Numbered from the stretch's first letter, positions 1-36,522 are shown. The stretch is DNA of 64,000 bases from an uncultured Pseudomonadales bacterium (GCA_964404025.1 CAYOIJ010000001.1:22685-86684); one strand, 5' to 3'. Notes: a model not told the origin generated them from the letters alone. Translations and numbers: made by a program.

Positions 1-696
1 GGGGCAAATCAAAACCCTGATGTTAATCCTGAAATTAATTACTCACCAGCTAGAAAAAAACGTATTCAAGAATATTTAAAAAGTATTCCAGAAAACGATG
101 AGAAACTTGATGATTGGGATCATCATTATAAACAAAAAACTCAGGCTTTAATTGCCAATTATGATCAAGTTAAGGTTCGAGCTGAGAACATTTCCGTTAA
201 ACAAGGGGAAGAGACGAGTAAGCCACAGCTTAAAACAAGAATTCGTAAATTGAAAAACTTAAAAGAGGTTCAAGAAAAAAATGTTCAAGATAATTTGCAA
301 AATGAGATAGGGGTAAATGAGGAAATAATTAATTTAGAAAACAAACAAACAACCAACTACAGCTTAAGCGCAAATAATCCCCCCAACAAACAGCTAGAAA
401 ACAAAAGTGTTGATGAAAATAAATTAGAGCCAGAGCAAGCCAACCAATTAGTTGGAAGAGTGACTGATTCACAAGGGCAAAGTGTTAATAATGCTTTGCT
501 GGAAATATTTGCTAATGATCAAGATCAAGCCTTGCGCATCATTAAAACCAACGCTGCTGGTCAATTTTATATTAAAACAGCCCTTCCTAACGGAGAATAT
601 TTGATCAAAACTGAGGCCGAAGGCTTAGTGTTTTCTCCATTAAGTATTAGGTTGACTGGAAAAATAGTTCCAAGCATAAAAATTATTGCTGATTAA
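1..696 (+). CDS. C-terminal part of a protein whose 5' end lies outside the window. The C-terminus has a carboxypeptidase-regulatory-like / Cna-B-like beta-sandwich motif (GRVTDSQGQSV...NDQDQALRIIKTNAAGQFYI...LPNGEYLIKTEAEG)
   Basis: Frame 1 is open from nt 1 to the stop at 696. The ORF-track Met at 250 is internal. VTD..G.PV..A...TDANG.Y.I..LP.G.Y pattern by eye. Lies directly upstream of the VirB4-like pair. Confidence 0.4.
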   Translation, partial: GANQNPDVNPEINYSPARKKRIQEYLKSIPENDEKLDDWDHHYKQKTQALIANYDQVKVRAENISVKQGEETSKPQLKTRIRKLKNLKEVQEKNVQDNLQNEIGVNEEIINLENKQTTNYSLSANNPPNKQLENKSVDENKLEPEQANQLVGRVTDSQGQSVNNALLEIFANDQDQALRIIKTNAAGQFYIKTALPNGEYLIKTEAEGLVFSPLSIRLTGKIVPSIKIIAD

Positions 697-749
697 AAAT
701 TAAGACTCTTTTACTAAGGGTCAAAATCTAGTAAACTTAAACAAGACTC

Positions 750-1844
750 ATGAGTGATAACACTATTAGCTCTACTACGCAAGAATTTCTTGATGTTTTT
801 GATATTACCAACGACATGGTAATCCTTAAAGATGGTGTGGTATCCATCATTATGCAAATAGGCACCATGAACTTTAGTTTATTAGCAGAACAAGAACAAG
901 ATGCCATTATGTATACCTATGGTGCCTTGCTTAATTCTCTCAACTTCCCCATTCAAATTAATATTCAATCCAACATCAAAGACGCAACTAGATACCTAAG
1001 ATTACTCGAAAACCAGGCTAGACAAGCTAAATCTAGAGAGAAGGCTAAATTAATTGAAGAATACCGAGATTTTGTAGCTAATTTAATTCGCGAACGCAAT
1101 GTTTTAGAAAAAAAATTCTTTGTAGTTATTCCCACCAATGCTGGAGAAATGGGTTTATACACCGCAGAAAGCGTACTACCTGGTAAAACTAAATTTAACA
1201 TTAATAATTTTGAAAAAACCATCCTAATCGAAAAAGCCTCTACAATACTAGATCCTCGTAGAGATCATTTAATAGCTCAATTTAATAGGATTGGTTTATT
1301 CGCTAGACAACTAGATACTCAAGAAATTATTCAAAATTTTTATATTAACTACAATCCAGAATCAACAGAAGGACAAGAAGTTACTAATAGTGAAAGCTAT
1401 ACAACTCCTATGGTTAGGGCCAGTCTAACAAGCAATCAAAAACTTAGCACAGTAGAACAAGATAATGTCCAAGCTCAGACGCAGACTCAAGCTCCGGCCC
1501 CAAAACAAACACCAGCACAAACACCAGTTTCAGCGCCCAAGCCAGCACCAATACCGACATCACCACCAACACCGGCATCGTCACCAGAGATAACCACTGA
1601 ACCAACTGAAAGCTTTGTACCAAGCGAGATACCAAAAACCGACACCAATCCAACAAACTTCAGTGAAGAAATTGCGCAACTTCAAACAACAAGCCCCGAA
1701 CCAAATCAACCCTCACTAATAAATAATGATGCTCAAGAAACAAACTTAAACGTCCAAAACAATCAATTTAATCAAAAAATGATGCCACCTAGCTCAATCA
1801 ATCAAGTATTAAATAAAAATGAGTCAGGGCCCGTGGAGCTTTAA
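750..1844 (+). CDS. VirB4 N-terminal-domain-like protein with no Walker motifs and a Pro/Thr/Gln-rich low-complexity tail. Translationally coupled (TAATG overlap) to the downstream VirB4 ATPase
   Basis: N-terminus QEFLDVFDITNDMVILKDGVVSIIMQIGTMNFSLLAEQEQDAIMYTYGALLNSLNFPIQINIQ resembles the N-terminal signature of VirB4/TcpF/TraE ATPases (KDG...inf.l.s.eEq..i...f...ln.l....qi). No TM segment. Its stop overlaps the start of the next gene. Confidence 0.4.
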   Translation: MSDNTISSTTQEFLDVFDITNDMVILKDGVVSIIMQIGTMNFSLLAEQEQDAIMYTYGALLNSLNFPIQINIQSNIKDATRYLRLLENQARQAKSREKAKLIEEYRDFVANLIRERNVLEKKFFVVIPTNAGEMGLYTAESVLPGKTKFNINNFEKTILIEKASTILDPRRDHLIAQFNRIGLFARQLDTQEIIQNFYINYNPESTEGQEVTNSESYTTPMVRASLTSNQKLSTVEQDNVQAQTQTQAPAPKQTPAQTPVSAPKPAPIPTSPPTPASSPEITTEPTESFVPSEIPKTDTNPTNFSEEIAQLQTTSPEPNQPSLINNDAQETNLNVQNNQFNQKMMPPSSINQVLNKNESGPVEL

Positions 1845-4039
1845 TGTCAATTTTAGATTTTAACCTACCATTTCTTAACAAGAAAAAACCCAGCATCGAC
1901 CCTGTAGAACAAAAACAAATTGATGCAGAACAATACACCCAAGAAAAATTGAGAGATTTTTCTCGAGGCCTTGTTACCATTCAAGACATTATTGCTCCAG
2001 AAGCAATTGAGGTGGACTTCACCTATCAAAAAATTAATTCTACCTATACTAGAACTCTTTTTGTAGCTGGCTATCCCAGGAGTGTTCCTGCTAACTGGCT
2101 GTCCCCTCTAATTAATTTTCCTACTCAAGCCAATATTTCAATGTTTATTTTTCCTTCAGACACTAGTGAAATTTTAGACAACTTGAAGAGAAAAATTACC
2201 GAAATGGAGGCTGAGATTACCTCCGATGTCAGGGCGGGTAAAATTAGCAATATTAATACTGAAATTAAACTAAATGATGCTCGAGTTATGCGTGAACAGC
2301 TTGCTGCCGGATCAGAAAGATTTTTTCAATTTAGCTTATATGTCACCATCAAGAGTGAAAGTAAAGAGCAGTTAGAAAAAACCACTAAAGCTATTCAATC
2401 TGCTCTAGGATCTTTATTAATTGTTTCCAAAAAGTCAGCCCTACAAATGGATGAGGGCTTTAAAACAACCATTCCCATGGGTGTAGATCGCCTACTTGTT
2501 ACCAGAAACATGGACACCACTTCTCTTGCCACTACCTTTCCATTTACCTCCTCAGAACTAACCATGGAAACTGGTATTGTTTATGGGATTAACGAGCACA
2601 ATGACTCTCTGGTTATATTTGATCGCTTTCAAATGGAAAACGCCAATATGGTTATTTTTGCTAAGTCTGGAGCTGGTAAATCTTATACGGTTAAACTAGA
2701 AATTTTGCGACAGCTTATGTTCGACACAGAAATTATTGTTCTTGATCCAGAGCATGAGTATGAAGAGCTTTGTAAAATGGTGGGCGGAGAATACATTAAT
2801 TTTACTTTTGGTTCAAAAGCTAAGATTAATCCTTTCGATTTGTCCAACCTATATGAAGAAGGAGAAAACGAGCTTGGACAAAAAATTCTTTCACTTCACG
2901 GCTTGCTAAAAGTAATGTTGGGCGAAATGACTCCCCAACAAGAAGCAATACTAGATCGCGCTATTGTTGCTAGTTACAAGGCTAAAGGCATAACTCCAGA
3001 TCCCAACACACAAACCAACACTCCCCCACTAATGGAGGATCTTTATAAAGCCTTAATTGGCATGGAGCAAGATGAAAGCGCCGACTTAGCTGCTCGTTTA
3101 GAAAAATTTATTACCGGTTCTTTTCGCGGTATTTTTGATAAAGCTTCAAACATAGATATTAAATCTCCCTTCACAGTATTTAGTGTTAAAGAAATGGAAG
3201 AAGAACTGCGACCAATAGCAATGTATGTGATTCTTGACTTTATTTGGACAAAAATTAAGAAAGATCTCAAAAGAAGAATTTTGGTTATTGATGAGGCCTG
3301 GTACTTTATGATGCATCAGGACAGTTCAGCTTTTGTTTATTCAATGGTTAAAAGAGCGCGAAAATATTATTTAGGAATTACCACTATTACTCAAGACGTA
3401 GAAGACTTTTTACGAAATGATTATGGGCGAGCTATTGTTTCCAACTCCTCCATCCAGTTTTTAATGAAACAATCCACATCTTCAGTTCCTCTTTTAGCTC
3501 AAACTTTTTATCTGTCTGAAGGTGAAAGACAGCTCTTGGTTACTTCAGATGTTGGTGAGGGAATCTTTTTTGCTGGACAAAACCACGTGGCACTACGGGT
3601 AATTGCTTCTGATAAAGAACATCAGGTAATTACTACTGATCCAGAGGAAATTTTGAGTCAAAGAAAACAAGCTAGTGCTGAAAGAGAATTACGCCGCCAA
3701 AGACTTGAACAAAGCTCATCTGTAGAAACGCCAGAAGAAAAAGTTGGATCCTTTGAGACACCAAGTAAAATTCCCTGGCAAGGAGAAGAAATTAATTTTA
3801 CAACAGACGTATTGGAAGACGCAACAAATAAAGCAGAAAAAAATCTAAAACAAAATCCAGTGTTACCTCAAATTAAAAATATTTTTGATGGCGAAGGTCA
3901 TGCACAAACAGAATCTCAAAATATAGAGACTAAAAACCAAAATGCAAATCCTGATAGTCCTACAAGCACGGAGAGCGAAGAATCAAACAATAAACAGCAC
4001 TTTGGCTATTCAATTGACGACTATCAAGCTCCAAAATAA
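1844..4039 (+). CDS. virB4: VirB4/TraE/TcpF-family (AAA_10) type IV secretion / conjugative transfer ATPase
   Basis: Walker A VIFAKSGAGKSYTVK, Walker B RRILVIDEAWYFM, GITTITQDVEDF motif. VirB4-type N-terminal region (IAPEAIEVDFTYQKINSTYTRTLFVAGYPRSV). 731 aa with an unusual roughly 130-aa low-complexity acidic/polar C-terminal tail. Confidence 0.8.
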   Translation: MSILDFNLPFLNKKKPSIDPVEQKQIDAEQYTQEKLRDFSRGLVTIQDIIAPEAIEVDFTYQKINSTYTRTLFVAGYPRSVPANWLSPLINFPTQANISMFIFPSDTSEILDNLKRKITEMEAEITSDVRAGKISNINTEIKLNDARVMREQLAAGSERFFQFSLYVTIKSESKEQLEKTTKAIQSALGSLLIVSKKSALQMDEGFKTTIPMGVDRLLVTRNMDTTSLATTFPFTSSELTMETGIVYGINEHNDSLVIFDRFQMENANMVIFAKSGAGKSYTVKLEILRQLMFDTEIIVLDPEHEYEELCKMVGGEYINFTFGSKAKINPFDLSNLYEEGENELGQKILSLHGLLKVMLGEMTPQQEAILDRAIVASYKAKGITPDPNTQTNTPPLMEDLYKALIGMEQDESADLAARLEKFITGSFRGIFDKASNIDIKSPFTVFSVKEMEEELRPIAMYVILDFIWTKIKKDLKRRILVIDEAWYFMMHQDSSAFVYSMVKRARKYYLGITTITQDVEDFLRNDYGRAIVSNSSIQFLMKQSTSSVPLLAQTFYLSEGERQLLVTSDVGEGIFFAGQNHVALRVIASDKEHQVITTDPEEILSQRKQASAERELRRQRLEQSSSVETPEEKVGSFETPSKIPWQGEEINFTTDVLEDATNKAEKNLKQNPVLPQIKNIFDGEGHAQTESQNIETKNQNANPDSPTSTESEESNNKQHFGYSIDDYQAPK

Positions 4040-4050
4040 AAAATTGCCCC

Positions 4051-4080
4051 TTGTCAAATGTGGAAAACACTGTGTATAAC
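4051..4080 (+). promoter_or_regulatory. Putative dnaA promoter. A TTGTCA -35-like element and a TATAAC/GTATAA -10-like element overlap two DnaA-box-like 9-mers (TGTGGAAAA 4059-4067, TGTGTATAA 4071-4079)
   Basis: Read directly. Each 9-mer has one mismatch to TGTGGATAA (the reverse complement of TTATCCACA). 60-90 nt upstream of the dnaA ATG. Confidence 0.3.
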
Positions 4081-4143
4081 TATGAGTGTTAAATTTCTTT
4101 TGTAGTTTCAAATTCTGCCCCAGAAAGATGTCTAAGGATTAGT

Positions 4144-5652
4144 ATGTCAGAACAAGCTTATGATTCTCAAACCATAGAACAAATTTGGCAAATGGCTAAA
4201 AATGATCTAGAAAGCAGCTTAAGTCCAGCAATTTTTAATACATGGATTCTACCTAGCCCACTCACCCAACTGAGAGTTATTGATGAATTAAAAGCTGAGG
4301 CAACAATAAATTGCATGACTGCATTTCACGCAACCAATCTAAAATCCAATCTTTATTTACCAATTAAAACCGCTTTAGAAAAATATGTAAATCGACCGCT
4401 AGAAATAAATTTTGTGGTGGGTGATGGTAAAAAAACAGAAAAGCAAAACGACGGTTTTGTTCAAACCGACCATCGCCTCAGTTCTAAAAAAAAACAGACT
4501 CACAAAACAAATGAAAGTACAGACGGACCAGGACTAGTTTCCCCCACCGTAGACGAGTTGTTTTCTTACTCAAATATTGAGAATAATGCTATTGATAGGT
4601 TTAATTTAAGAGCTAAACAAATAGGTCTTAAAAACGATTTTACTTTTAACAATTTTGCTGTTGATCCTAGCAACCAAATGGCTCATGCCGCTGCTACCAA
4701 GGTTGCCAGTAGTCCCGGTTCAAGCTACAACCCTCTCTTTTTATATGGCGGGGTGGGCGTGGGCAAAACACATCTTATGCACGCCATTGCCAACTACATT
4801 TTAAAAAACGATCCAGACATCAATATTGTTTTCTGTACTGGCGAACAATTTACTAACGAAATTATTCGCTCAATTCAAAACAAAAACTCAGCTCAATTCC
4901 GCAATAAATATCGACGCGCTGAATTATTACTATTAGACGACATCCAATTTATTGCTGGTAAAAAAAGTGTTCAAGAGGAATTTTTCCATACTTTTAATGC
5001 TTTGACTGGAAATAATTCGCAAGTTATTTTAACCTCCGACCTTCCTCCCCACGAAATTAGTTTGCTAGAGGATAGAATTCGCTCACGCTTTGAGGCTGGT
5101 CTAATGATTGATATTCAACAACCAACTCTAGAACTTCGTACAGCAATTTTACTACTCAAAGCACAATCTAATCACATCAACATTCCCAACCACCTCGCCC
5201 AAAGAATTGCTGCTCAAGTTGACAGTGCTAGACGAATTGAGGGAATTATTAAAAAAATTCGCAGCGCCGTTGAACTACAAGGAGCAGAGATCAATGTTGA
5301 GTTAATCGACTTAATTCTTAAAAAAGAAATTAGACATAATCATAAAAAAATGCTCAAGGTTAAGCCACAAGACATTATTCAAAGCGTTAGTAACCACTTT
5401 CACCTTAAGCAAAGCGCTATTAAGGGTGGAAGGCGCAATAAAGAGTTGGTTAAGGCTCGCCATATTGCCATGTACCTTTTAAGACAGGAACTAAATAGCT
5501 CTCTTGAAGAAATTGGCCAGTGGTTTGGTGGTCGTGATCACACCAGCGTTATCCATGCCGTTAAAAAAATTGAAAAGGAGTTGTTGGTTGATGAGACAAT
5601 CATTCAAGATGTTTCTGCTTTAAAAATGTCTTTAGTAGCCATTTCTAAATAA
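4144..5652 (+). CDS. dnaA: Chromosomal replication initiator protein DnaA
   Basis: AAA+ Walker A LFLYGGVGVGKTHLMHAIANYI, Walker B LLLLDDIQFIAGK. C-terminal DnaA HTH (IAMYLLRQELNSSLEEIGQWFGGRDHTSVIHAVKKIE). 502 aa. Confidence 0.95.
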   Translation: MSEQAYDSQTIEQIWQMAKNDLESSLSPAIFNTWILPSPLTQLRVIDELKAEATINCMTAFHATNLKSNLYLPIKTALEKYVNRPLEINFVVGDGKKTEKQNDGFVQTDHRLSSKKKQTHKTNESTDGPGLVSPTVDELFSYSNIENNAIDRFNLRAKQIGLKNDFTFNNFAVDPSNQMAHAAATKVASSPGSSYNPLFLYGGVGVGKTHLMHAIANYILKNDPDINIVFCTGEQFTNEIIRSIQNKNSAQFRNKYRRAELLLLDDIQFIAGKKSVQEEFFHTFNALTGNNSQVILTSDLPPHEISLLEDRIRSRFEAGLMIDIQQPTLELRTAILLLKAQSNHINIPNHLAQRIAAQVDSARRIEGIIKKIRSAVELQGAEINVELIDLILKKEIRHNHKKMLKVKPQDIIQSVSNHFHLKQSAIKGGRRNKELVKARHIAMYLLRQELNSSLEEIGQWFGGRDHTSVIHAVKKIEKELLVDETIIQDVSALKMSLVAISK

Positions 5653-5713
5653 ACACATTAAAAAAACTGATTTATGCTTATTTTTTAAACAAAAACAAAC
5701 ATAAACAATACAC

Positions 5714-5722
5714 TTTTCCACA
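5714..5722 (+). promoter_or_regulatory. DnaA box, one mismatch (TTTTCCACA)
   Basis: Read directly. 15 bp upstream of the perfect box and in the opposite orientation. Confidence 0.5.
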
Positions 5723-5736
5723 AACCTGAAAAACTC

Positions 5737-5745
5737 TGTGGATAA
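5737..5745 (-). promoter_or_regulatory. Perfect DnaA box (TGTGGATAA on +, which is TTATCCACA on -)
   Basis: Exact 9-mer read at 5737-5745. Confidence 0.75.
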
Positions 5746-5860
5746 AGTATGAATAAACTGTGAAAAAGCTTGAATAATTATTAACCCCTTGTTTATTAAA
5801 CTTAAACTTATGCTAAGTTCTTCTAAAAAGCTCACAAGGAAATTCACTACTTTATGCCAT

Positions 5861-5869
5861 TTATTCACA
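5861..5869 (+). promoter_or_regulatory. DnaA box, one mismatch (TTATTCACA)
   Basis: Read directly. Confidence 0.5.
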
Positions 5870-5937
5870 AAAAAATTAGACCTAAAAAGAACATTTTTTT
5901 TGAGTAATTTCATCGTTTTCGTGAATAAATTTTCACT

Positions 5938-6005
5938 TTCCCACCACACCTACTACTACTATTACTATTTATATATAAATTAATTATAGAAATTAAAATT
6001 TATCA
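5938..6005. repeat. GC-cluster (CCCACCACACC), then six tandem trinucleotides TAC TAC TAC TAT TAC TAT (5951-5968), then an AT-rich tract (5969-6005). This architecture resembles DnaA-trios followed by a DNA unwinding element
   Basis: Read directly. The order DnaA box, GC cluster, 3-nt periodic repeat, AT-rich region matches the described bacterial basal unwinding module. Confidence 0.5.
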
Positions 6006-6011
6006 GTTACA

Positions 6012-7160
6012 ATGAAGTTTATGAAAATAATCGCTCTACAAGAAAATATTAAACAAGAACTTGTTTATTTACAAAAAATTATACCAAGTAGACCACAATT
6101 ACCAATTTTATCTTCTATTTTTCTTAAATCCCAGGATAATAAATTAGTTCTGGCCGCAACAGACCTATATCTAGGTATGCGGTCTAGCACAGTGGTTGAG
6201 GTTAAAGAAAAAGGATCTCTAGTTGTTGATGGTGATACTTTTCGTAGTTTAATTTTTTCCCTTTCTCCTGGAAAAATTACTCTAGAGTTAGTAGACTCTG
6301 TTTTGAAAATAACCCAGGGTAAAACAAAAATTAAATTAAGCTGTCAATCTACCGAAGAATATCCTAAATTTCCTGATGTCAGTGGTGACTCTTTTAAGTT
6401 ACAAACAACAGATTTGGAAAAGATTCAAAAATTAGTAATCTTTGCTACTAGCACTGATCAAACAAGACCGGTTCTAACATCGTTATTAATGAAATTTTCT
6501 GACAAAGGTTTGACCGTTGTCGGAACAGATGGTTTTAGATTAGCCAACCTTGAGCTTAATGAACTCAAATTCTCTTTTAATAAAAATCTAATGGTTCCGG
6601 CCAAAGCACTAAGTGAATTGTTGAGAATAGCTAAGCAGTGCCAGAGTGACGAAGTGGAAATAATTGTAGCTGAAGAATTAAAACAGCTTTTATTTAAGGT
6701 TAATGGTATTGAGTTTTTTGTCAGATTAATCGAGGGAGATTATCCACCCTATCAAAAAATTATTCCTCCAAGCTTTCGCTTAAAAGCACAAATTGATGGC
6801 GAGGAGTTTCTAGATCAACTTAAAAGAGCACAAATTTTTTCAAGAGAGAGTTCGAATATTGTTCGCTTGTCATTTAAAAATGAAAATAAAAACAATTATT
6901 TGATAATAAAATCAATCTCCCCAACTTACGGAGAATATGTTGGAGAGATGTCCATTGAGATAGATACTGAAATTTTAAAGCAAGAATTAAACGAACTACA
7001 AATAGCTTTTAATGTTTTGTACTTAATTGATTTCATTAACGCAGTTGACACAGAAAAAATATCTTTAAGCGTAAACGAAAGCTTAAAACCCGCGAAATTT
7101 ACCAATCCATCAGATAAAAACTATTTATATATTAGCATGCCGTTCAGAGTCAACGAATAA
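6012..7160 (+). CDS. dnaN: DNA polymerase III beta sliding clamp
   Basis: Position after dnaA. 382 aa. The N-terminus MKFMKIIALQENIKQELVYLQKIIPSRPQLPILSSIFLK...LAATDLYLGMRS matches the DnaN N-terminal signature (R.TLPILSN.L....L.L.ATDLE). Confidence 0.85.
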   Translation: MKFMKIIALQENIKQELVYLQKIIPSRPQLPILSSIFLKSQDNKLVLAATDLYLGMRSSTVVEVKEKGSLVVDGDTFRSLIFSLSPGKITLELVDSVLKITQGKTKIKLSCQSTEEYPKFPDVSGDSFKLQTTDLEKIQKLVIFATSTDQTRPVLTSLLMKFSDKGLTVVGTDGFRLANLELNELKFSFNKNLMVPAKALSELLRIAKQCQSDEVEIIVAEELKQLLFKVNGIEFFVRLIEGDYPPYQKIIPPSFRLKAQIDGEEFLDQLKRAQIFSRESSNIVRLSFKNENKNNYLIIKSISPTYGEYVGEMSIEIDTEILKQELNELQIAFNVLYLIDFINAVDTEKISLSVNESLKPAKFTNPSDKNYLYISMPFRVNE

Positions 7161-18121: not shown

Positions 18122-18553
18122 TTAGTTTTCAATCCAATTTTTTTCTGAGCCTGGAATGATAAATGATTTAATCATCTCAATGCCAGTGAAATTAGCGATC
18201 AGATTAATGATAATAAAAGCCGACAGGGCTAAAATTAGGCCAATAATAGCAAAGGTAATAGTATTCTTAGACTTTTCTACTTCTTGGCTTTTTCCAGCTG
18301 ATAACAATAGATTAAAAGCTGCGTAAATAATCATCACAAATCCTGCTATGCCAATTAATGTTAAAACAATGGAAAGAGTATTGGCCAGTAAACACCCAAT
18401 GCCTTGAACAGTGGCTACTCCTTCGATAGTGCAATTGGTGTTGATTTCATCCCATTTTTTAGTTTGTGCTTGGACAGGTTTAACAAGAGGAAAAAACGAA
18501 AGGGTTTGAATCATCATGGATTTGATTATAGCAATAAAAAACTCTCTTTCCAA
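18122..18553 (-). CDS. VirB2/TrbC-like pilin paralog 1 of 7
   Basis: Signal peptide ending VQAQT. Two TM helices flank the conserved loop LLSAGKSQEVEKSKNTITFAIIGLILA. C-terminal tail ...IIPGSEKNWIEN. Confidence 0.6.
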   Translation of the reverse strand: MEREFFIAIIKSMMIQTLSFFPLVKPVQAQTKKWDEINTNCTIEGVATVQGIGCLLANTLSIVLTLIGIAGFVMIIYAAFNLLLSAGKSQEVEKSKNTITFAIIGLILALSAFIIINLIANFTGIEMIKSFIIPGSEKNWIEN

Positions 18554-18590
18554 GCAAATGAAAAGAGAGTTTTTTAGTATTTAAATTTAA

Positions 18591-18992
18591 TTAGGGTTTA
18601 TTAATAGTGCCTACGTTTTGAAAAACTTCATTAAAGCTACCAAAGCCTAAGAAGTTTACAATTAAGTTAATTATGGCGTAGGAAGCTGCTACGACAATTA
18701 AACCAATGATGGCGGCCGTAATCTTGTTGCGAGCTTCTTCAGCTTTTCCCTTATCTCCTCCTGAAGTAATCCATTGAATACCTCCAAAAATTAGATAGGC
18801 AAAAACCAAGATAGCTGCAAGCAACATCACCACATTCAAAATAGAACTAAACATTTTGCCAAAATCAGTGGCGTAACCAGTACCTGGAGTGACTTCAATG
18901 TCATCAAAAGCTGCCATTACCAGCTTGGCTTGAAGAAGAATTCCACTTAAAGCACTGCCACTAGCCAGAGCAATTTTTTTAGTTAATTTCAT
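18591..18992 (-). CDS. VirB2/TrbC-like pilin paralog 2 of 7
   Basis: Signal peptide. TM hairpin with loop WITSGGDKGKAEEARNKITAAIIGLIVVAASYAI. RBS AAAAGGAGAC. An extended -10 lies upstream. Confidence 0.65.
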   Translation of the reverse strand: MKLTKKIALASGSALSGILLQAKLVMAAFDDIEVTPGTGYATDFGKMFSSILNVVMLLAAILVFAYLIFGGIQWITSGGDKGKAEEARNKITAAIIGLIVVAASYAIINLIVNFLGFGSFNEVFQNVGTINKP

Positions 18993-19028
18993 AAAAGTCT
19001 CCTTTTAAATTTTTTTATCTAACTTTTT

Positions 19029-19037
19029 ATTATATCA
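19029..19037 (-). promoter_or_regulatory. Extended -10 promoter (TGATATAAT on the minus strand) upstream of pilin paralog 2
   Basis: Read on the reverse complement of 18993-19063. About 37 nt from the start codon, with a strong RBS between. Confidence 0.4.
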
Positions 19038-19063
19038 AGTTTATTAGTCTTTAGCAAAAAAAT

Positions 19064-19405
19064 CTAGACGAATTTTATTACAGTGATACCAAGGAAACTG
19101 GCTACCAGACTAAAAATAGCCATAGTGGCTGCTAGAACTATTAAGCCAATAATAGCCGTAGTGATTTTGTTGCGGGCAAATTCTATTTTACTTTTATCTC
19201 CGGAAGAAGTTATCCATTCAATCGCTCCCCAAATAATTAAGCCTAAACAAGCAACAACCCCCAGAACCATAGCTACTCTTAAAATGTTGCTGAGCCAATT
19301 GCCGAATCCACCATCAGCTGTTTGAGACTCCTCAGCTCCATATAGACCCTGCTTAACAGCTTCCTCAGCTATGTCTAAAGTAACTTGTGCGATTTGTTTA
19401 CTCAT
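19064..19405 (-). CDS. VirB2/TrbC-like pilin paralog 3 of 7
   Basis: TM hairpin with loop WITSSGDKSKIEFARNKITTAIIGLIVLAATMAI. 113 aa. Confidence 0.65.
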   Translation of the reverse strand: MSKQIAQVTLDIAEEAVKQGLYGAEESQTADGGFGNWLSNILRVAMVLGVVACLGLIIWGAIEWITSSGDKSKIEFARNKITTAIIGLIVLAATMAIFSLVASFLGITVIKFV

Positions 19406-19430
19406 ATTTGATTTTTCAAAATTATTAATG

Positions 19431-19859
19431 TTAATTTACACCTGGAATAGTGAGTCTTAATAGGTCAAATTCACCACCAAACAGTAATTTACTCATAAAG
19501 CCTAGTAAAACAAAGGAGCTAACCAATAAAACCAAGCCAATAATGGCGTGAGTCATTTGATTGCGTGCTTTTTCAAGTTTGCTTGTATCTCCTCCTGAAG
19601 TAATCCAAGTGAAGGCTCCCATGAGAAAATAGGCGATAACAGCTAGTGAGCCAATAGTTATAGAAGCCCTCCACAGATAAACTGTATATTCAATAAATTT
19701 GCCACCACTGGTTACAGTGGCATCGTGTTGTCCAAGGTCACCAGTCACTGGGTTGTTAATTTGCGCCTGAACTATTTGTGGCTGAACGATGAAGCTTAAT
19801 AAAAGCAAATAAAAAAAACTTAGTTTTTGATACAGGTTTGAATATAAGATTTTTTTCAT
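19431..19859 (-). CDS. VirB2/TrbC-like pilin paralog 4 of 7
   Basis: Signal peptide ending VQAQI. Loop WITSGGDTSKLEKARNQMTHAIIGLVLL. C-terminal ...LTIPGVN. Confidence 0.65.
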   Translation of the reverse strand: MKKILYSNLYQKLSFFYLLLLSFIVQPQIVQAQINNPVTGDLGQHDATVTSGGKFIEYTVYLWRASITIGSLAVIAYFLMGAFTWITSGGDTSKLEKARNQMTHAIIGLVLLVSSFVLLGFMSKLLFGGEFDLLRLTIPGVN

Positions 19860-19865
19860 ATAAAT

Positions 19866-20255
19866 TTAACTGTTTCCAGGAATAATTTCTTGTATCATCT
19901 TGGCTGGCTCTAGTAAGTCTAAGCCTATAATGCCGCCAATAAGACCGATAATTGCATAAGTGGCAACAATTAAAATCAGGCCTAAAGTGCTCCAAACCAG
20001 ACGATCTTTGGCCTTTTCAACTTTGCCTGTGTCGCCGGCAGCGGTAATCCAGCTAAATGCAGCAATAAAAGCATAGACAATAAAAAATAAGGTACCCAAA
20101 ACAGTAATTACCCCGATAATGTCACTGATCCATAACTCTAGGGTTGACAATACAACAGTAGCGTCTTCTAAATTGGCTGGTTGACGAGCTTCACTAACTG
20201 GTTTTATTGAGCCAATATTGACATCTTTAGCAAGAAGAGTATTAATTTTTGACAT
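19866..20255 (-). CDS. VirB2/TrbC-like pilin paralog 5 of 7
   Basis: Loop WITAAGDTGKVEKAKDRLVWSTLGLILIVATYAI. C-terminal ...IIPGNS. Confidence 0.65.
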   Translation of the reverse strand: MSKINTLLAKDVNIGSIKPVSEARQPANLEDATVVLSTLELWISDIIGVITVLGTLFFIVYAFIAAFSWITAAGDTGKVEKAKDRLVWSTLGLILIVATYAIIGLIGGIIGLDLLEPAKMIQEIIPGNS

Positions 20256-20263
20256 AATTTTAT

Positions 20264-20704
20264 TTATATTATTGGACTTGGTATTTTGGGGTTAATTATA
20301 AAGCTAGCATCACCAAATAGAATTAAACCGATAACAGCGGCGATGGTGTAAGAGGCAACAATGATAGCGAGCCCAACAACGCTTAGAGTAAGTTTGGAGC
20401 CAATTTTTTCTATAGCTCCTGAGTTGTCGGCACTAGTGATATAGGTAAAACCAGCTAAGATAAAATTAAGCATGGTCCACAATCCAGCCACAATTGAGAT
20501 CAGTTTAATCAAGTTAGAAAAGAAAAGAATAAGGCCAATACCACTATCTGATTGTTGATTTAACTCAGCCACGCCAGGAGGAGCATCAATATTACCAAAA
20601 ACAGAAGCGGGTTTAGCGCTTGGGGTTTGGGCAAAGGTTTGATTATTTAAAAAGATGCTTGATGCAATAAGTAGAAAAAGTAGTCCTAAAATTATTTTTT
20701 TCAT
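20264..20704 (-). CDS. VirB2/TrbC-like pilin paralog 6 of 7
   Basis: Signal peptide ending FAQT. Loop YITSADNSGAIEKIGSKLTLSVVGLAIIVASYTI. Confidence 0.6.
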   Translation of the reverse strand: MKKIILGLLFLLIASSIFLNNQTFAQTPSAKPASVFGNIDAPPGVAELNQQSDSGIGLILFFSNLIKLISIVAGLWTMLNFILAGFTYITSADNSGAIEKIGSKLTLSVVGLAIIVASYTIAAVIGLILFGDASFIINPKIPSPII

Positions 20705-20733
20705 TTCAAATTTCCATTATACCTGGCTCTTTT

Positions 20734-21150
20734 TCAAAAGCCAATATCTGCTCCAGTAAATGTTTTGATTATTTGCATAATCCAATAAGCAGCGAAAATA
20801 ACTAAGAATCCGATGAGAGCCGAAGTCATGGTAGTTTTAGCTTTTTCTTTACTTTCTGACTCACTTCCGGCAATCATAGCTAAACCTGAAATAACGATCA
20901 TGGCAAAAAGAATTAAGCCAACTAAGACAAAGACAACTCTTACCAAAAGATTAACCATGTCTGCTGGCGTGCTAAAAACATCACTAACTTTTTGGCCGTC
21001 ACTAAGAACCAAGTATTCTGCAAGATCTATCTCAACAGCGTTAGTATCAGCTTGAGCTGTAAATTGAATGGATGAAAAATTAAAAATTAAAAAATTTGAA
21101 GCTAGAACTGACATTATTAATATAATTGTCATCAAGATTTTTTTCATCAA
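20734..21150 (-). CDS. VirB2/TrbC-like pilin paralog 7 of 7
   Basis: Signal peptide ending TAQA. Loop MIAGSESESKEKAKTTMTSALIGFLVIFAAYWI. Confidence 0.6.
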   Translation of the reverse strand: MMKKILMTIILIMSVLASNFLIFNFSSIQFTAQADTNAVEIDLAEYLVLSDGQKVSDVFSTPADMVNLLVRVVFVLVGLILFAMIVISGLAMIAGSESESKEKAKTTMTSALIGFLVIFAAYWIMQIIKTFTGADIGF

Positions 21151-21197
21151 AGCTAATTATAAAATAAAATTTTCTGATATGATAGGGTAGTTTGATC

Positions 21198-21755
21198 ATG
21201 AAGCGTTTTATCGGATTTACAGACGAGCGAGTTTTAGTTGAAGCCATCAAAAATGGTCATGAATTGGCCATCGAATATTGGTTTAAGCATTACTATAAAA
21301 AATTATTAACTCTAGCTTTACAAAAATTACCCAATTCAGCTGTAGCTGAAGAAATTGTGCAAGAAACCTTTGTTAATTGTTTGCGGGCAATCAACTTATT
21401 TAAGGGAAATAGTTCGTTGTTAACATACATGCAGAGTATTTTACGTCATGAAATTAATGATTTTTATCGTAAACGGTATGCAAAAAAATTTATCAAAACG
21501 ATTCCTCTCTCTGAGGTTTTTTTAGAGCATGAGTTTAAAGATGCTCATGAAACTGCTGTCATGGTTAAATTAGTTTTAAAAAAAATGGCTAGAAGATCTA
21601 GAGAGTTGCTAATGCAAAAATATGTAGATAAAAAAAGAGTAAAAGATTTGGCTCGAGAACTAGGTAGAACCGAAAAGGCTATCGAATCTGAATTGTTTAG
21701 GGCCAGAAAAGAATTTCGTTTGCTGTGGGCAAATATTAGTCAAACAATTGATTGA
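21198..21755 (+). CDS. ECF-type sigma-70 family sigma factor
   Basis: Region-2-like AVAEEIVQETFVNCLRAINLFKGNSSLLTYMQSILRHEINDFYRKR. Region-4 HTH RELLMQKYVDKKRVKDLARELGRTEKAIESELFRARKEFR. Divergent from the pilin array with only a roughly 45-bp spacer. The track start at 21192 is a TTG; the first ATG is at 21198. Confidence 0.75.
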   Translation: MKRFIGFTDERVLVEAIKNGHELAIEYWFKHYYKKLLTLALQKLPNSAVAEEIVQETFVNCLRAINLFKGNSSLLTYMQSILRHEINDFYRKRYAKKFIKTIPLSEVFLEHEFKDAHETAVMVKLVLKKMARRSRELLMQKYVDKKRVKDLARELGRTEKAIESELFRARKEFRLLWANISQTID

Positions 21756-24955: not shown

Positions 24956-26068
24956 ATGACTTTAATGTACGAGCCCCAATTTCAAATCAGCAACAACTTA
25001 TTGAGCTATATTTCTGCGATCGAATCAGCTAAAGCAGTAATTGATAATTCACCACTTGTGCCTGCTTGGGAAGCTAAATTTCGTGATGAAGCATTAGCTC
25101 GCAGTGTTCATTATGGCACCAGAATTGAGGGTAATGATTTAAGTGCTGCTCAAGCTGGGCAGGTTTTATCTTTAGAAAAAATTGATACTGTGCAATCAGT
25201 GCTTGATCAGACTGGCATAATTGCTCGTGAAAGAGATATTCAAGAAGTAATTAATTATCGCAATGTCTTGGCTTGGATAGACCAGCAGCCATTGTTAAAA
25301 AAAAGCCAAGATCAAGAAGATTCTTTACTCAATCTTGCAACCCTAAACCTATTGCACCGCTTAACAATGAACAATTTACTAGAAGAAGGTAGAATTGCTG
25401 TTTTGCGTGATAAGCAAGTTATTGTCAGAGGTGCAAGAGATGGACAGGTAGTTTTTCGTCCCCCAGTAGCTGCTGAAGTTCCATTTTTATTAGACGATCT
25501 TTTCACTTGGTTAAAGGGGGAAGAGAGTCAAAACTTACACCCAATTTTGCGAGCAGCAATTGTTCACTATCAACTAGTCTATATCCATCCCTATGTAGAG
25601 GGGAATGGTCGCACTGCTCGAGCTTTTGCTACTCTTGCTCTTTATGAGTCTGGCTATGATTTCAAGCGTTTTTTTTCAATTGAAGAGTATTTTGACAGCA
25701 ATGTTGACGCCTACTATCAAGCACTTTTATCTGTTCAGCAAAATGCTAAACACGATTTAACTTATTGGTTGGAGTATTTTGCCTATGGTTTGGCGCTGGA
25801 AATTGATAAGGTTAAACTAAAAGTAGCCAAGCTTTCACAAGATTTGAAGCTCAAGCGCGAGCTTGGACAGCAAGTAGCCCTATCTGAGCGACAAATTGTT
25901 TTATTAGAACTGCTACAAAATCAAGGGACTATGACCTCTGACGATGCCCAAAAAGTCTTACCCAATGTTTCGGTTGATACTATTCTGCGAGATCTTAAGG
26001 ACTTGATTGCCAAGGGTGTGGTTAAGAAACATGGGGTAACCAAGGGGGTTAGCTATAGTCTTAATTAA
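24956..26068 (+). CDS. Fic/DOC family protein with a C-terminal winged-helix domain
   Basis: Canonical Fic motif HPYVEGNGRTARAFATLALY (HPFx[DE]GNGR). C-terminal wHTH-like DLKDLIAKGVVKKHGVTKGVSYSL. Confidence 0.85.
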   Translation: MTLMYEPQFQISNNLLSYISAIESAKAVIDNSPLVPAWEAKFRDEALARSVHYGTRIEGNDLSAAQAGQVLSLEKIDTVQSVLDQTGIIARERDIQEVINYRNVLAWIDQQPLLKKSQDQEDSLLNLATLNLLHRLTMNNLLEEGRIAVLRDKQVIVRGARDGQVVFRPPVAAEVPFLLDDLFTWLKGEESQNLHPILRAAIVHYQLVYIHPYVEGNGRTARAFATLALYESGYDFKRFFSIEEYFDSNVDAYYQALLSVQQNAKHDLTYWLEYFAYGLALEIDKVKLKVAKLSQDLKLKRELGQQVALSERQIVLLELLQNQGTMTSDDAQKVLPNVSVDTILRDLKDLIAKGVVKKHGVTKGVSYSLN

Positions 26069-26132: not shown

Positions 26133-27959
26133 ATGCTTTTTAATCGATTAACCCAATATTTGCTCAATTTAGAAAAACTTAGTTCTCGTCTGGAAATGAC
26201 AGAATTATTAGCTGAAGTTTTTAAAGAGCTTGGTGAAGAAGAAATCGCGCCAGCTAGTTATTTATTGCAAGGAGGTTTGGTCCCTAGCTATCAATCTCTA
26301 GAGTTTCAATTATCCAATAAAATGTTGGTGCGCTCTCTAGCCAATTTTTATCTTCGTTATGAAAATTCTCTAAAAGATAAAGGTCGAGAGCTATTTTCAG
26401 AGCAAAATTTGTTTGGCGCTGACAATCAAGAGCTAATTGTTAAGAGGTTAAACAAACAATACAAAGAAATGGGTGACTTGGGAGATTTGTTTTATCAAAC
26501 ATTAGATAATTTTTCAGAATTACTAAATAATGATAAAAATTTAAATATTTTGGAAGTTCATCAAAAACTAGAAGATATTGCCAGGGTTGGAGGACTAGGT
26601 TCTCAGGATAAAAAAATCAATCTTTTGGCTGATTTATTAAGTCAGGTTAGTCCCTTATCAGGTAAGTTTATAGCGCGGATTATTTTGGGGAAAATGCGTT
26701 TGGGTTTTTCTACTATGACCATGTTGGACGCATTGTCATGGGTAAAAACAGGGGACAAAAGTGAGTCTCCGGCTTTGGAGGAAGCTTTTCAAAAAAAAGC
26801 TGATTTTGGTTTGTTGGCAAAACTATATCTTTTTGAAAAAGATCTTAATGCTAAAGAATTAGCCAGTCGTTACAAAATGGAGCTGGGCATTCCAGTAGTG
26901 CCAGCACTATGCCAAAGACTGAATAGTTCTCAAGAAATTATTGATAAAATGGGTGAACTTATAGCTGAACCAAAATATGATGGTTTACGTATCCAAATCC
27001 ATCTCAATAAAGCTGGCTTTGCTGATGGTAGCCGATATAAAGCTTATACTCGCAATTTAGAAGAAGTATCAGCGATGTTTCCAGAATTAGATCAATTATT
27101 GGAAGAATTTCAGGGTGAAACAGCTATTTTAGATAGTGAGGCTGTCGGTATTAATCCTGATTCTGGGAAGTTTGTTGCTTTTCAAGAAACCATTTCTCGT
27201 AAACGTAAATATGAAGTTGATGCTAAAGCCTTGGAGTTACCCATTCGCTTTTATGTTTTTGATTTATTGTATTTGAATGATGAGTCTCTAATTGATGAGC
27301 AACTACTTGATCGTAAAAAAAAGCTCAGCAAGGCAATTAATGACTCACAAGTGGTTAAAATAACTGATTACCAAATTATCAGTGATCCAATTGTTTTAAC
27401 TAATTATCATGAAAAACAATTAGACCTTGGTTTAGAGGGCGCAGTAATGAAAAAACCAGAATCTGCTTATGTGGCTGGTCGTAAAGGTTGGCGTTGGGTA
27501 AAAATCAAGGAAGCTGAGGGTAAACGAGGTAAATTAAATGATACTCTTGACTGCATTATGATGGGTTATTATCGAGGCAAAGGTAAGAGACAAAGCTTTG
27601 GTATTGGGGCGCTGTTAGTTGGTGTTTTAGATGAAGTCAGTGGCAAAATTAAAACTTTATCTAAGATTGGTACTGGTTTAACTGATGAGCAATTTCGCAA
27701 AGTTAAGAATTTGGCAGATCAGCACTTGACCAGCAATCATGAGCCTAACTCAAAATATGATTTTAAAAAAGAATTGGCAGCTGATGTGTGGATTGAGCCA
27801 AAATTAGTCTTGGAAATTGCAGCTGATGAAATTTCCAAATCTCCGAGCCATACTGCTACGGTGGCCCTGCGCTTCCCTCGTTTGATAAAAATTAGGGGCG
27901 ACAAGGATTGGCAACAAGCAACTACCCTTCAGGAATTAAAAAATATTAGTCAGGCTTAA
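26133..27959 (+). CDS. lig: ATP-dependent DNA ligase (Lig1-like, with N-terminal DNA-binding domain)
   Basis: Motif I AEPKYDGLRIQIH (KxDGxR). LDSEAVGI (motif III). EGAVMKK (motif IV). RKGWRWVKIK (motif V). 608 aa. Confidence 0.8.
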   Translation: MLFNRLTQYLLNLEKLSSRLEMTELLAEVFKELGEEEIAPASYLLQGGLVPSYQSLEFQLSNKMLVRSLANFYLRYENSLKDKGRELFSEQNLFGADNQELIVKRLNKQYKEMGDLGDLFYQTLDNFSELLNNDKNLNILEVHQKLEDIARVGGLGSQDKKINLLADLLSQVSPLSGKFIARIILGKMRLGFSTMTMLDALSWVKTGDKSESPALEEAFQKKADFGLLAKLYLFEKDLNAKELASRYKMELGIPVVPALCQRLNSSQEIIDKMGELIAEPKYDGLRIQIHLNKAGFADGSRYKAYTRNLEEVSAMFPELDQLLEEFQGETAILDSEAVGINPDSGKFVAFQETISRKRKYEVDAKALELPIRFYVFDLLYLNDESLIDEQLLDRKKKLSKAINDSQVVKITDYQIISDPIVLTNYHEKQLDLGLEGAVMKKPESAYVAGRKGWRWVKIKEAEGKRGKLNDTLDCIMMGYYRGKGKRQSFGIGALLVGVLDEVSGKIKTLSKIGTGLTDEQFRKVKNLADQHLTSNHEPNSKYDFKKELAADVWIEPKLVLEIAADEISKSPSHTATVALRFPRLIKIRGDKDWQQATTLQELKNISQA

Positions 27960-34286: not shown

Positions 34287-34290
34287 AGGG

Positions 34291-34364
34291 TGCGTGTGCT
34301 AGGACTTGAACCTAGAACCGCCAAGGTATAAGCTTGGTGCTCTAACCAATTGAGCTACACACGC
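34291..34364 (-). tRNA. tRNA with anticodon UAU. Ile-type, reading AUA, is inferred from the anticodon and D-arm only. 74 nt, with CC encoded after the discriminator A
   Basis: Hand-folded cloverleaf. Acceptor GCGTGTG/CACACGC is a perfect 7 bp. U8 A9. D-stem GCTC/GAGC with loop AATTGGTTA. Anticodon stem CCAAG/CTTGG with loop C-U-UAU-A-C. Variable loop CGGTT. T-arm CTAGG-TTCAAGT-CCTAG. Discriminator A. Confidence 0.8.
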
Positions 34365-34405
34365 GCTTGAAATGCATTATAGCAAAAAACCAAGGAAAAC
34401 TAACT

Positions 34406-35323
34406 TTACAAAAGTAGTAGTAGCAGTGCGCCAAAGCCAAGAACACCGAGTCCAGCTTTTAGGTAATTAAACCAATCGGCAAATCCTGATTCGGTTGGCA
34501 CAAGGGCTGGTCTCTCAATAACATTATTACCATCTGGCAAGCGACAGTTAACATCAGTTGGATTAACATCAAGACGACATAGTCCCTCATAACAAATGTG
34601 ACTGACATTGTCGCAGTCAGTATTTTCACTACAACTTTCATTACAACCAACAGTGGTAATTACTTGAGTTAAAACAGGAGTTGGCTCTTCTTTGGGAGGA
34701 GTAGTTACCGTAGTAGGTGTTGGAGTGGCAACTGGCTTATCGGTGGGAGTAGGTTCTGGAGTTTGAGTTGGGCTGGGAGTTCCTGTTGGTTCTGGAGTTG
34801 GAGTGAGTGTTAAAGATGGGGTTGGCGTGGTAGTTGGCTCAACACTAGGAGTGGGAGAGGGAGTAATGCTAATTGTTGGCTCCACACAGCAAGAGTCATA
34901 ATCACGCTGATTACGGCACTCATCAGTTTGTGAAGCTAAGCCACAAATACCAACTGCAATGGCCACTCCTTCATTTGGAGCGCCTTGTATACAAACATAA
35001 TCTTCTTGACAATCATTATCATCAGCGCAGCCACTTTCGGCACAGCTTAAGTTTAAAGGAACACTAAAGGTAGTGACACAAGATTCTTCTACAGGAATAT
35101 ATGCTTCTGGTTGAGATTGTGGGACGTTGGGAGCTACTGGTCCTGGTTCTAACTCTTGTTTGCGACTAATCAAAATAACACTAGCTGATCCCACGATAAA
35201 AAGTAGCAGAGTAAAAAACAATAGTACAGTTTTAAGTGGGTTTTTGCTCTTTTTTGTTTTAGAATCACCAGCACTCGGTGCTTTTGCATATTTGACTGGT
35301 TGGTAATTATTGTTTTTGTCCAT
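34406..35323 (-). CDS. Cys-rich, Thr/Pro-linker surface protein, paralog A. N-terminal signal-anchor and a shared C-terminal domain ending in a hydrophobic tail
   Basis: N-terminal basic region plus TM. Many Cys. PT-rich linker (TPSPTPSVEPTTTPTPS...). The roughly 95-aa C-terminal domain VITTVGCNESCSENTDCDNVSHICYEGLCRLDVNPTDVNCRLPDG...VPTESGFADWFNYLKAGLGVLGFGALLLLLL is near-identical to paralog C. Confidence 0.6.
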   Translation of the reverse strand: MDKNNNYQPVKYAKAPSAGDSKTKKSKNPLKTVLLFFTLLLFIVGSASVILISRKQELEPGPVAPNVPQSQPEAYIPVEESCVTTFSVPLNLSCAESGCADDNDCQEDYVCIQGAPNEGVAIAVGICGLASQTDECRNQRDYDSCCVEPTISITPSPTPSVEPTTTPTPSLTLTPTPEPTGTPSPTQTPEPTPTDKPVATPTPTTVTTPPKEEPTPVLTQVITTVGCNESCSENTDCDNVSHICYEGLCRLDVNPTDVNCRLPDGNNVIERPALVPTESGFADWFNYLKAGLGVLGFGALLLLLL

Positions 35324-35334
35324 TTTCTTATTTT

Positions 35335-36417: not shown

Positions 36418-36522
36418 AAAAAGACTATGAATAAGGCATTACAAGTATTATCTTTAGATAAGCATACTCTATTTTTTGAGGCTTTAGCAAGAGTAATTTT
36501 TTATATTCCATTCTAGAATTAA

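Follow-up and report, generated by a model that had tools for sequence, protein, structure and literature searches.

Profile comparisons and a natural one-chain homologue indicate that the VirB4 ATPase of a type IV secretion system (T4SS) is encoded as a split gene, and not alongside a duplicate of its N-terminal domain, at positions 750-4039 of a 64,000-nucleotide stretch of DNA deposited as from an uncultured Pseudomonadales bacterium (GCA_964404025.1 CAYOIJ010000001.1:22685-86684); this whole stretch is referred to below as the window, with positions counted from its first letter. The two genes lie directly upstream of dnaA, and the region is very probably the cytoplasmic motor module of a chromosomal T4SS of Patescibacteria, the former candidate phyla radiation (CPR), in a genome of the Pacebacteria type and derived from the monoderm MPF-FATA class. 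The system itself has already been described (Quinonero-Coronel et al. 2025, PMC12102498; Wang et al. 2023, PMC10633639). An earlier reading of this DNA, made from the sequence alone and called here the sequence-only reading, had given the coordinates and lengths of both open reading frames exactly.

The downstream gene, open reading frame 2 (ORF2; 1844-4039, + strand, 731 residues), codes for a T4SS VirB4 ATPase, as judged from its profile matches. It scores 389.4 bits (E 3.3e-116) against the NCBIfam model NF045971, the CD1110 VirB4 family of MPF-FATA type, whose curated cut-off is 325, and is thereby a member of that family; further matches are to the Mbov_0397 VirB4, TraC and VirB4_CagE models and, in the Pfam scan, to P-loop_TraG, DUF87 and AAA_10, the last being one that the sequence-only reading had proposed to look for. 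Residues 239-597 match the sequence of the VirB4 C-terminal domain structure 4AG5 (E 3.4e-49), and the sequence of the TrwK structure also matches the C-terminal domain (E 2.3e-5). The nucleotide-binding motifs are in place, with Walker A as AKSGAGKS at residues 273-280 (nt 2660-2683), Walker B as ILVIDE at residues 479-484 (nt 3278-3295) and the TQD motif at residues 516-518 (nt 3389-3397). By these scores ORF2 groups with VirB4 families of T4SSs and not with AAA families from outside them, and the earlier assignment of a VirB4-family ATPase with these three motifs is borne out.

ORF2 does not carry a complete N-terminal domain on its one polypeptide. The CD1110 profile aligns to it over positions 167-734 of 752, the VirB4_plasma profile begins on it at position 278 of 894, and all full-length VirB4 profiles align from an internal position, roughly 166-278 positions in, so that the body of ORF2 (residues 1-600; 1844..3643, + strand) reads as a VirB4 ATPase short of its first ~166 profile positions. 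This is where it departs from the unsplit MPF-FATA ATPases, CD1110 of CTn2 and PrgJ of pCF10, which represent its best-scoring family and share its Walker motifs and C-terminal domain: those are single chains of ~750-800 residues, whereas here the first ~166 profile positions are found on a separate polypeptide.

That polypeptide is ORF1 (750-1844, + strand, 364 residues), whose N-terminal domain (residues 1-225; 750..1424, + strand) is a TrsD-like module that corresponds to the ~200 residues with which an unsplit VirB4 begins. Residues 17-215 align to positions 111-289 of the VirB4_plasma profile (E 2.3e-4), and the NCBIfam TrsD/TraD model (NF041427; 201 positions) gives a match at E 3e-7 and 30.4 bits. 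The signal is firmer in the family than in the single protein: among 47 diverse relatives of ORF1, VirB4_plasma is matched by all 47, TrsD by 46 and CD1110 VirB4 by 26, with best E values of 4.7e-13 to a VirB4 profile and 8e-12 to TrsD. A HMMER search with ORF1 residues 1-235 returned 1537 clusters at E <= 1e-3, and in 150 of the 150 matches listed from these the domain stands at the N-terminus of the protein. In two respects ORF1 fits TrsD and TraD: its gene comes just before virB4, and its product is related to the N-terminal part of VirB4. The sequence-only reading had described ORF1 as carrying the N-terminal segment of VirB4 with no ATPase part, and the TrsD and VirB4_plasma matches agree with this; it had also called that segment a second copy, which it is not, since ORF2 starts at profile position 167 of 752 and ORF1 holds the only copy.

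Fold prediction points in the same direction. A first AlphaFold2 (AF2) model of ORF1, built with 30 close homologues, was poor (predicted local distance difference test, pLDDT, 65) and was superseded by a model built from the 47 diverse homologues (pLDDT 86.8, predicted template-modelling score, pTM, 0.75). The top 14 matches of this model in the PDB are all TrwK/VirB4 chains of R388, with Foldseek probabilities of 0.80-0.99, so that the VirB4 N-domain fold anticipated earlier finds its only consistent structural counterpart in TrwK/VirB4, at modest scores. Searching the PDB sequences with ORF1 (phmmer) and with the ORF1 family profile (hmmsearch) returned nothing meaningful.

The sequence-only reading had left the arrangement as a split or a duplicated N-domain, and the comparison now supports the split and speaks against the duplication, because ORF2 lacks exactly the segment that ORF1 carries. 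ORF1 and ORF2 show no similarity to each other by BLASTP. The two parts are joined in P0208, a natural one-chain VirB4 of 787 residues read from three contigs, which covers CD1110 profile positions 3-735 without a break: the ORF1 N-domain corresponds to its residues 2-205 at 43% identity, and ORF2 residues 50-614 correspond to its residues 213-778 at 62% identity, the ORF1-like and ORF2-like parts being colinear and no segment repeated. P0208 belongs to another CPR lineage (L009 7477-9840; L010 877-3240), where its neighbours are a PrgI gene and a gene for an 890-residue Peptidase_M23 protein, with dnaN and dnaA near; such fused forms make up 2 of the 260 family members retrieved. On these alignments ORF1 is shown to supply the N-terminal ~200 residues of a canonical VirB4, with ORF2 as the remainder of the N-terminal domain plus the RecA-like ATPase domain. 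The argument for the split is carried by the sequence-profile evidence and the colinear fusion, and the fold match is consistent with it without being strong by itself.

The same alignments bear on a different account, which takes ORF1 for an accessory paralogue that arose by duplication of the VirB4 N-domain and acts as regulator or adaptor, and ORF2 for a self-sufficient VirB4. It can draw on the fact that ORF2 passes the VirB4 family cut-off unaided, on the lack of an assigned function for TrsD (PMC12102498), on the looseness of the ORF1-virB4 coupling in some relatives, and on the long ORF1 tail with conserved motifs of its own, which suggests an adaptor role. We nonetheless consider it quite improbable, given the internal start of the ORF2 alignment in every full-length VirB4 profile, the dissimilarity of the two chains, and a fused homologue that covers the profile colinearly and without a repeat.

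In the window the stop codon of ORF1 and the start codon of ORF2 overlap as TAATG (1842..1846, + strand), as read from the sequence, with a GGAG 9 nt upstream of the ATG, and the translational coupling noted by the sequence-only reading is thus seen at 1842-1846. In 20 related species the virB4 reading frame has its first in-frame ATG at a gap of -1, 0 or +1 nt from the stop of ORF1. The existence of the one-polypeptide form P0208 in another lineage could be taken to mean that ORF1 and ORF2 are pieces of a pseudogene broken by a frameshift or nonsense mutation, that sequencing or assembly went wrong, or that one long VirB4 is restored by programmed frameshifting. This explanation has a negligible probability and is already refuted by the comparative data: the identical protein is present in two independent assemblies, ORF1 and virB4 are separate in all 70 species loci in which both genes were read, with gaps of -20 to +481 nt and varying frames, the homologous parts of the split form are held apart by ~190 residues of ORF1 tail and ORF2 leader, and both halves are highly conserved. 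Fusion of the two products by programmed frameshifting or readthrough was rejected on the ground that both the gap length and the frame vary among species.

The scan took one genome per species of the GTDB and yielded 80 loci (L011-L090), 65 of them with at least 5.5 kb of downstream sequence. In 64 of these 65, ORF1, VirB4 and dnaA are colinear on one strand, and where the flanking genes were matched, a PrgI-like gene precedes ORF1 and dnaN follows dnaA. Median identity to the window proteins is 80% for the VirB4 body, 60% for the ORF1 N-domain, 53% for DnaA, 46% for DnaN and 38% for the PrgI-like protein; taken by domain, VirB4 reaches medians of 82-83% against 64% for DnaA domains III-IV, and VirB4 is the higher in 64-65 of the 65 paired loci. 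YidC, for its part, has a median identity of 53% across ~65 species genomes, below the VirB4 domains. The relatives of ORF1 that have a source name come from metagenome-assembled genomes (MAGs) of 'Candidatus Pacebacteria' or the 'Patescibacteria group' (placed by NCBI in Minisyncoccota, the former CPR), and the informatively titled loci of the species scan name Patescibacteria, Pace-, Paceibacterota or Woesebacteria MAGs. Many of the species-representative MAGs with this CPR-specific locus bear the titles 'uncultured Pseudomonadales', 'TM6', 'Methylococcaceae' or 'Limisphaerales', and these public records are apparently mislabelled.

Taken as sequence conservation, these data mark the region as a fixed core locus under strong purifying selection and not as a recent insertion or a decaying element. 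The sequence-only reading had suggested an integrated or domesticated conjugative module; the dnaA synteny in 64 of 65 loci, together with the absence of a relaxase, coupling protein or integrase from the reading frames scanned, favours the second of these terms and not the first. The alternative, a recently integrated conjugative element or plasmid remnant beside dnaA whose ATPase is mobile cargo and possibly decaying, has in its favour that VirB4, TrsD and PrgI are ancestrally conjugation proteins and that the guanine-cytosine (GC) content of 750-4039 (0.369) is slightly over the window mean of 0.329. The latter difference lies within the window's own range of 0.24-0.41, and the alternative must further contend with one gene order beside dnaA in 64 of 65 species-level genomes, with a VirB4 better conserved than DnaA, with the lack of a relaxase, coupling protein or integrase among the window ORFs scanned, and with the published finding of a monophyletic, vertically inherited Patescibacteria clade (PMC12102498); it is very improbable and already largely refuted.

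The negative result on mobility genes comes from ~45 ORFs scanned in the window, including every ORF of at least 450 residues, none of which gave a relaxase, type IV coupling protein (T4CP) or integrase domain. The hallmarks of an integrative conjugative element or conjugative plasmid would be these three genes and a variable presence among relatives; the genes did not turn up among the ORFs scanned, and the locus keeps its site in 64 of 65 species.

The region agrees in its main features with the published Patescibacteria T4SS. Quinonero-Coronel et al. (PMC12102498) analysed 3,035 Patescibacteria genomes and found a monophyletic VirB4 clade nested in MPF-FATA, with TrsD adjoining virB4, PrgI/VirB3 homologues present, tandem divergent VirB2 arrays whose mean identity is 25% and which abound particularly in Microgenomatia, relaxases nearly absent and coupling proteins encoded elsewhere, and with a frequent location by dnaA, dnaN, rnpA and rpmH that they read as a gene-dosage effect. 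The window shares with the systems of PMC12102498 and PMC10633639 the VirB4 with an adjacent TrsD homologue and PrgI/VirB3, the divergent tandem pilin array (25% mean identity in both), the lack, within the window, of an associated relaxase or coupling protein, and the place beside dnaA, dnaN, rpmH and rnpA. Nothing essential differs, and three local details go beyond the paper: a PrgI-like gene directly adjoins the pair, as against an association of only 22.6% given for Microgenomatia; the PrgI-like protein of the window has a C-terminal CarboxypepD_reg domain; and both parts of the ATPase bear disordered tails with conserved end peptides.

The PrgI/VirB3-like gene is represented in the window by its 3' part (1..696, + strand, 231 codons), comprising a charged linker and a C-terminal CarboxypepD_reg beta-sandwich (32.4 bits against a cut-off of 32.3), the two-transmembrane PrgI domain lying upstream of the window start. 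The partial product is 71% identical to residues 107-317 of a 317-residue orthologue in the closest relative (L002), and the N-terminus of this orthologue matches Pfam PrgI (27.6 bits against a cut-off of 27), with two transmembrane-like segments, ahead of its own CarboxypepD_reg C-terminus. The sequence-only reading had noticed the carboxypeptidase-regulatory-like domain and thought that the partial frame might belong with the ATPase genes, which accords with its being the C-terminal part of a PrgI/VirB3-like protein. The exact window proteins are found on two contigs, one of 141 kb and an independent one of 7.8 kb, and both break off within the PrgI-like gene. In relatives no part of the cluster is less conserved than the upstream genes, so that strain heterogeneity there may be what interrupts the assemblies. 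Farther upstream in relatives are genes for a membrane-anchored protein of 135 residues, a protein of 1115 residues with one transmembrane segment and a polytopic protein of 580 residues; the C-terminal 236 residues of the 1115-residue protein of L002 gave no match among the PDB sequences.

On the other side, dnaA (4144..5652, + strand; Bac_DnaA E 1.9e-64, Bac_DnaA_C E 1.2e-26) begins 104 nt after ORF2, as the sequence-only reading had it in placing VirB4 directly upstream of dnaA. That reading had also called the proximity to the origin unusual, and here it must be corrected, as for the T4SS loci of Patescibacteria such a place is common and already published (PMC12102498). The spacer between virB4 and dnaA (4040..4143) contains two DnaA-box-like 9-mers (4059-4067 and 4071-4079, one mismatch each, by pattern search), has no terminator-like site on the + strand, and is probably the promoter or autoregulatory region of dnaA. 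A promoter and terminator scan of 1-6100 gave results at or below chance, and no operon boundaries are given. The spacer between dnaA and dnaN (5653..6011) is AT-rich (GC 0.245), with three DnaA boxes at 5714, 5737 (perfect) and 5861, and is probably oriC. Together the two spacers, 463 bp in total, hold 5 of the 23 DnaA-box-like 9-mers of the window, and windowed GC skew is negative to 6000 and positive after it, with its cumulative minimum in the 4001-6000 block; it is because of the DnaA boxes and this change in skew that the origin is placed beside dnaA. After it come dnaN (6012..7160, + strand), rnpA, yidD, yidC and a jag/KhpB-like gene, and gene calling on the co-linear contig L001 puts an rpmH of 48 residues between dnaN and rnpA.

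Candidate pilus subunits of the system are encoded farther along the window, where seven tandem, divergent VirB2-like pilin genes (18122..21150, - strand) specify proteins of 113-146 residues with two hydrophobic helices each. Six of the seven score above the cut-off of Pfam T4SS_pilin (PF18895), their pairwise identity averages 25% (range 16-41%), and the array is also annotated in an independent contig (L008). A divergently oriented sigma factor gene of the extracytoplasmic function (ECF) type (Sigma70_r2, r4_2; 21192-21755, + strand) adjoins the array and could regulate it.

Several observations weigh against the reading of the region as the motor module of such a system, with ORF1 as the N-terminal part of its ATPase. 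The 30.4 bits of ORF1 are far under the curated TrsD cut-off of 200 bits, and ORF1 is a remote homologue of TrsD by profile comparison and not a member by the NCBI cut-off. The local Pfam scan gave no family for ORF1, although precomputed annotation gives PF26593 (TraC-like) for it and for nearly all listed homologues. The fold match to TrwK is exclusive but modest, with Foldseek E values of 5e-3 to 0.1, none of them E <= 1e-3, and template-modelling scores (TM-scores) of 0.27-0.43. The tight coupling of stop and start is not universal, gaps in relatives reaching 481 nt. The pilin array is 14 kb downstream of the ATPase, and its functional link to it is drawn by analogy; the negative for relaxase and T4CP covers the 64-kb window only, so that a coupling protein may be encoded elsewhere in the genome. 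The L002 proteins of 580, 1115 and 135 residues have no Pfam or NCBIfam match, and VirB6-, VirB1- and VirB8-like roles for them are guesses. Finally, the joining of ORF1 and ORF2 in one protomer is a prediction from sequence comparison.

Within these bounds, ORF1 and ORF2 would assemble non-covalently into a VirB4-like protomer, which would dock on the VirB3-like membrane anchor through its ORF1-derived N-terminal part in the manner of TrwK/VirB4 in R388. A docking role is suggested for ORF1 because, according to a 2025 review (PMC12857230), VirB4 protomers are joined by their N-terminal domains, which are also set in the membrane and touch VirB3 and VirB8. The R388 TrwK/VirB4-TrwM/VirB3 structures (PDB 7O41, 8RTB, 8RTD) offer a template for such docking on VirB3 and the membrane, and TrwK is the only consistent structural match of the ORF1 N-domain model; R388 differs in being a diderm system with an outer-membrane core and in having TrwK as a single polypeptide, at 6-16% identity and a TM-score <= 0.43. 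A parallel in gene organization is given by TrsD-TrsE of pGO1/pSK41 and TraD-TraE of pIP501, in the pGO1 subclass of MPF-FATA, where the gene just before that of VirB4 likewise codes for a small relative of the VirB4 N-terminus. Unlike the locus here, these systems are carried on plasmids and conjugate, with a relaxase and a coupling protein, and ORF1 is set apart from TrsD (201 model positions) both by its 30 bits against the cut-off of 200 and by its additional disordered tail of 139 residues. The protomer is predicted to oligomerise and, with the energy of ATP, to build the VirB2-like pilins into a pilus or a translocation channel.

The machine is most likely one for host-cell interaction, by transfer of protein or other macromolecules or by pilus contact, rather than for conjugation, because no relaxase or coupling protein is associated with it. 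Such a role would match the essential T4SS of Southlakia epibionticum, in which transposon sequencing (Tn-seq) found the T4SS (SEML1_0006-0019) and the pilins essential for epibiotic growth (Wang et al. 2023, PMC10633639), as restated in the 2025 review. The placement near the origin plausibly gives a high and early gene dosage.

The direction of transport could also be the reverse: in place of an exporter or effector injector, the machine would bring DNA, RNA or further macromolecules of the host into the cell, as do the archaeal Ced system and ComB. ORF2 has a weak match to the DNA-import ATPase CedB (E 1.3e-14), which is far under the cut-off and much under its scores to conjugative VirB4 families. 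In favour of import, nucleotide synthesis is missing from these organisms, there is no relaxase or T4CP for DNA export, and a 2026 preprint describes T4SS-like tubes where a relative that feeds on host RNA meets its host, and links VirB4 to macromolecule transfer; in S. epibionticum, on the other hand, comEC-dependent competence is separable from the essentiality of the T4SS. Import of host macromolecules is on balance unlikely as an account of the system and yet a live alternative.

Both chains of the split ATPase end in disordered tails, recognized by composition. That of ORF1 (residues 226-364; 1425..1841, + strand) is rich in P, T, Q and N: its 139 residues are 16% P, 12% T, 11.5% Q and 11% N, which bears out the PT-rich end seen by the sequence-only reading and adds Q and N to it, and it contains two short conserved motifs, FSEEIAQLQ (nt 1659-1685) and the C-terminal GPVEL (nt 1827-1841). 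The tail of ORF2 (residues 601-731; 3644..4039, + strand) had been described as about 130 residues of low complexity and acidic; the 131 residues are indeed of low complexity and polar, the acidity being only mild (D+E 19%, K+R 11.5%, net charge -10), and they end in the conserved YSIDDYQAPK (nt 4007-4036) before the stop.

Among homologues the ORF1 tail is hypervariable in length and sequence, whole ORF1 proteins measuring 243-704 residues, and VirB4 varies across species from 625 to 809 residues, bar one truncated call of 434, with the differences in the tails; 31-216 residues follow the last aligned residue of VirB4. The extreme ends are more constant. A terminal [ILVP][AP]E[ILV] closes ORF1 in 42 of 75 species, and a Y[ST]I[DN]DYxPP-like peptide lies near the VirB4 C-terminus in most of the ~70 tails listed, as judged by eye and without a count. 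Across loci L011-L090 the end of the ORF1 tail has the consensus LPP[ILV][AP]E[IL] (GPVEL here), and one subclade keeps an internal F[SAT]EEIxxLQ. That the ORF1 peptide is a by-product of the Shine-Dalgarno sequence of virB4 was considered and rejected, as [ILVP][AP]E[ILV] persists at loci with a gap of 96-443 nt before the start of virB4. Neither tail is present in the fused P0208, and PMC12102498 makes no mention of tails, split complementarity or selection. Speculatively, and at a low probability, the tail peptides could be docking motifs that recruit substrates or partners to the ATPase; if so, they would provide for cargo selection without a coupling protein, or for tethering of the motor, in an essential, non-conjugative T4SS.

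Other loci of the window were recorded in passing. A gene for a Fic/DOC protein with a DeoR-type helix-turn-helix (24956-26068, + strand) adjoins one for an ATP-dependent DNA ligase of archaeal/eukaryotic type (26133-27959, + strand). At 34289-37626 (- strand) a tRNA-Ile gene with anticodon UAU adjoins three consecutive ORFs of 305, 360 and 367 residues without a Pfam match, and the 34-36 kb block has the highest GC content of the window (0.405). From ~38000 to 58900 extends an envelope glycosylation island of low GC (0.24-0.30), with several GT2/GT1 glycosyltransferases, two Wzy_C and two PMT_2-like proteins, RmlD, an epimerase, a radical SAM enzyme and an ABC-2 permease among its products.

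The window is a clean and typical example of the Patescibacteria T4SS from a Pacebacteria-type lineage, and it leaves the published picture unchanged. To that picture it makes minor additions: the complementarity of the split halves together with their natural fused counterpart, the terminal peptides on both tails, and a conservation of VirB4 above that of DnaA. The last of these, seen across ~65 species, supports a core cellular role for the system, which belongs to the small set of envelope machines with a demonstrated essential part in the epibiotic life of Patescibacteria.

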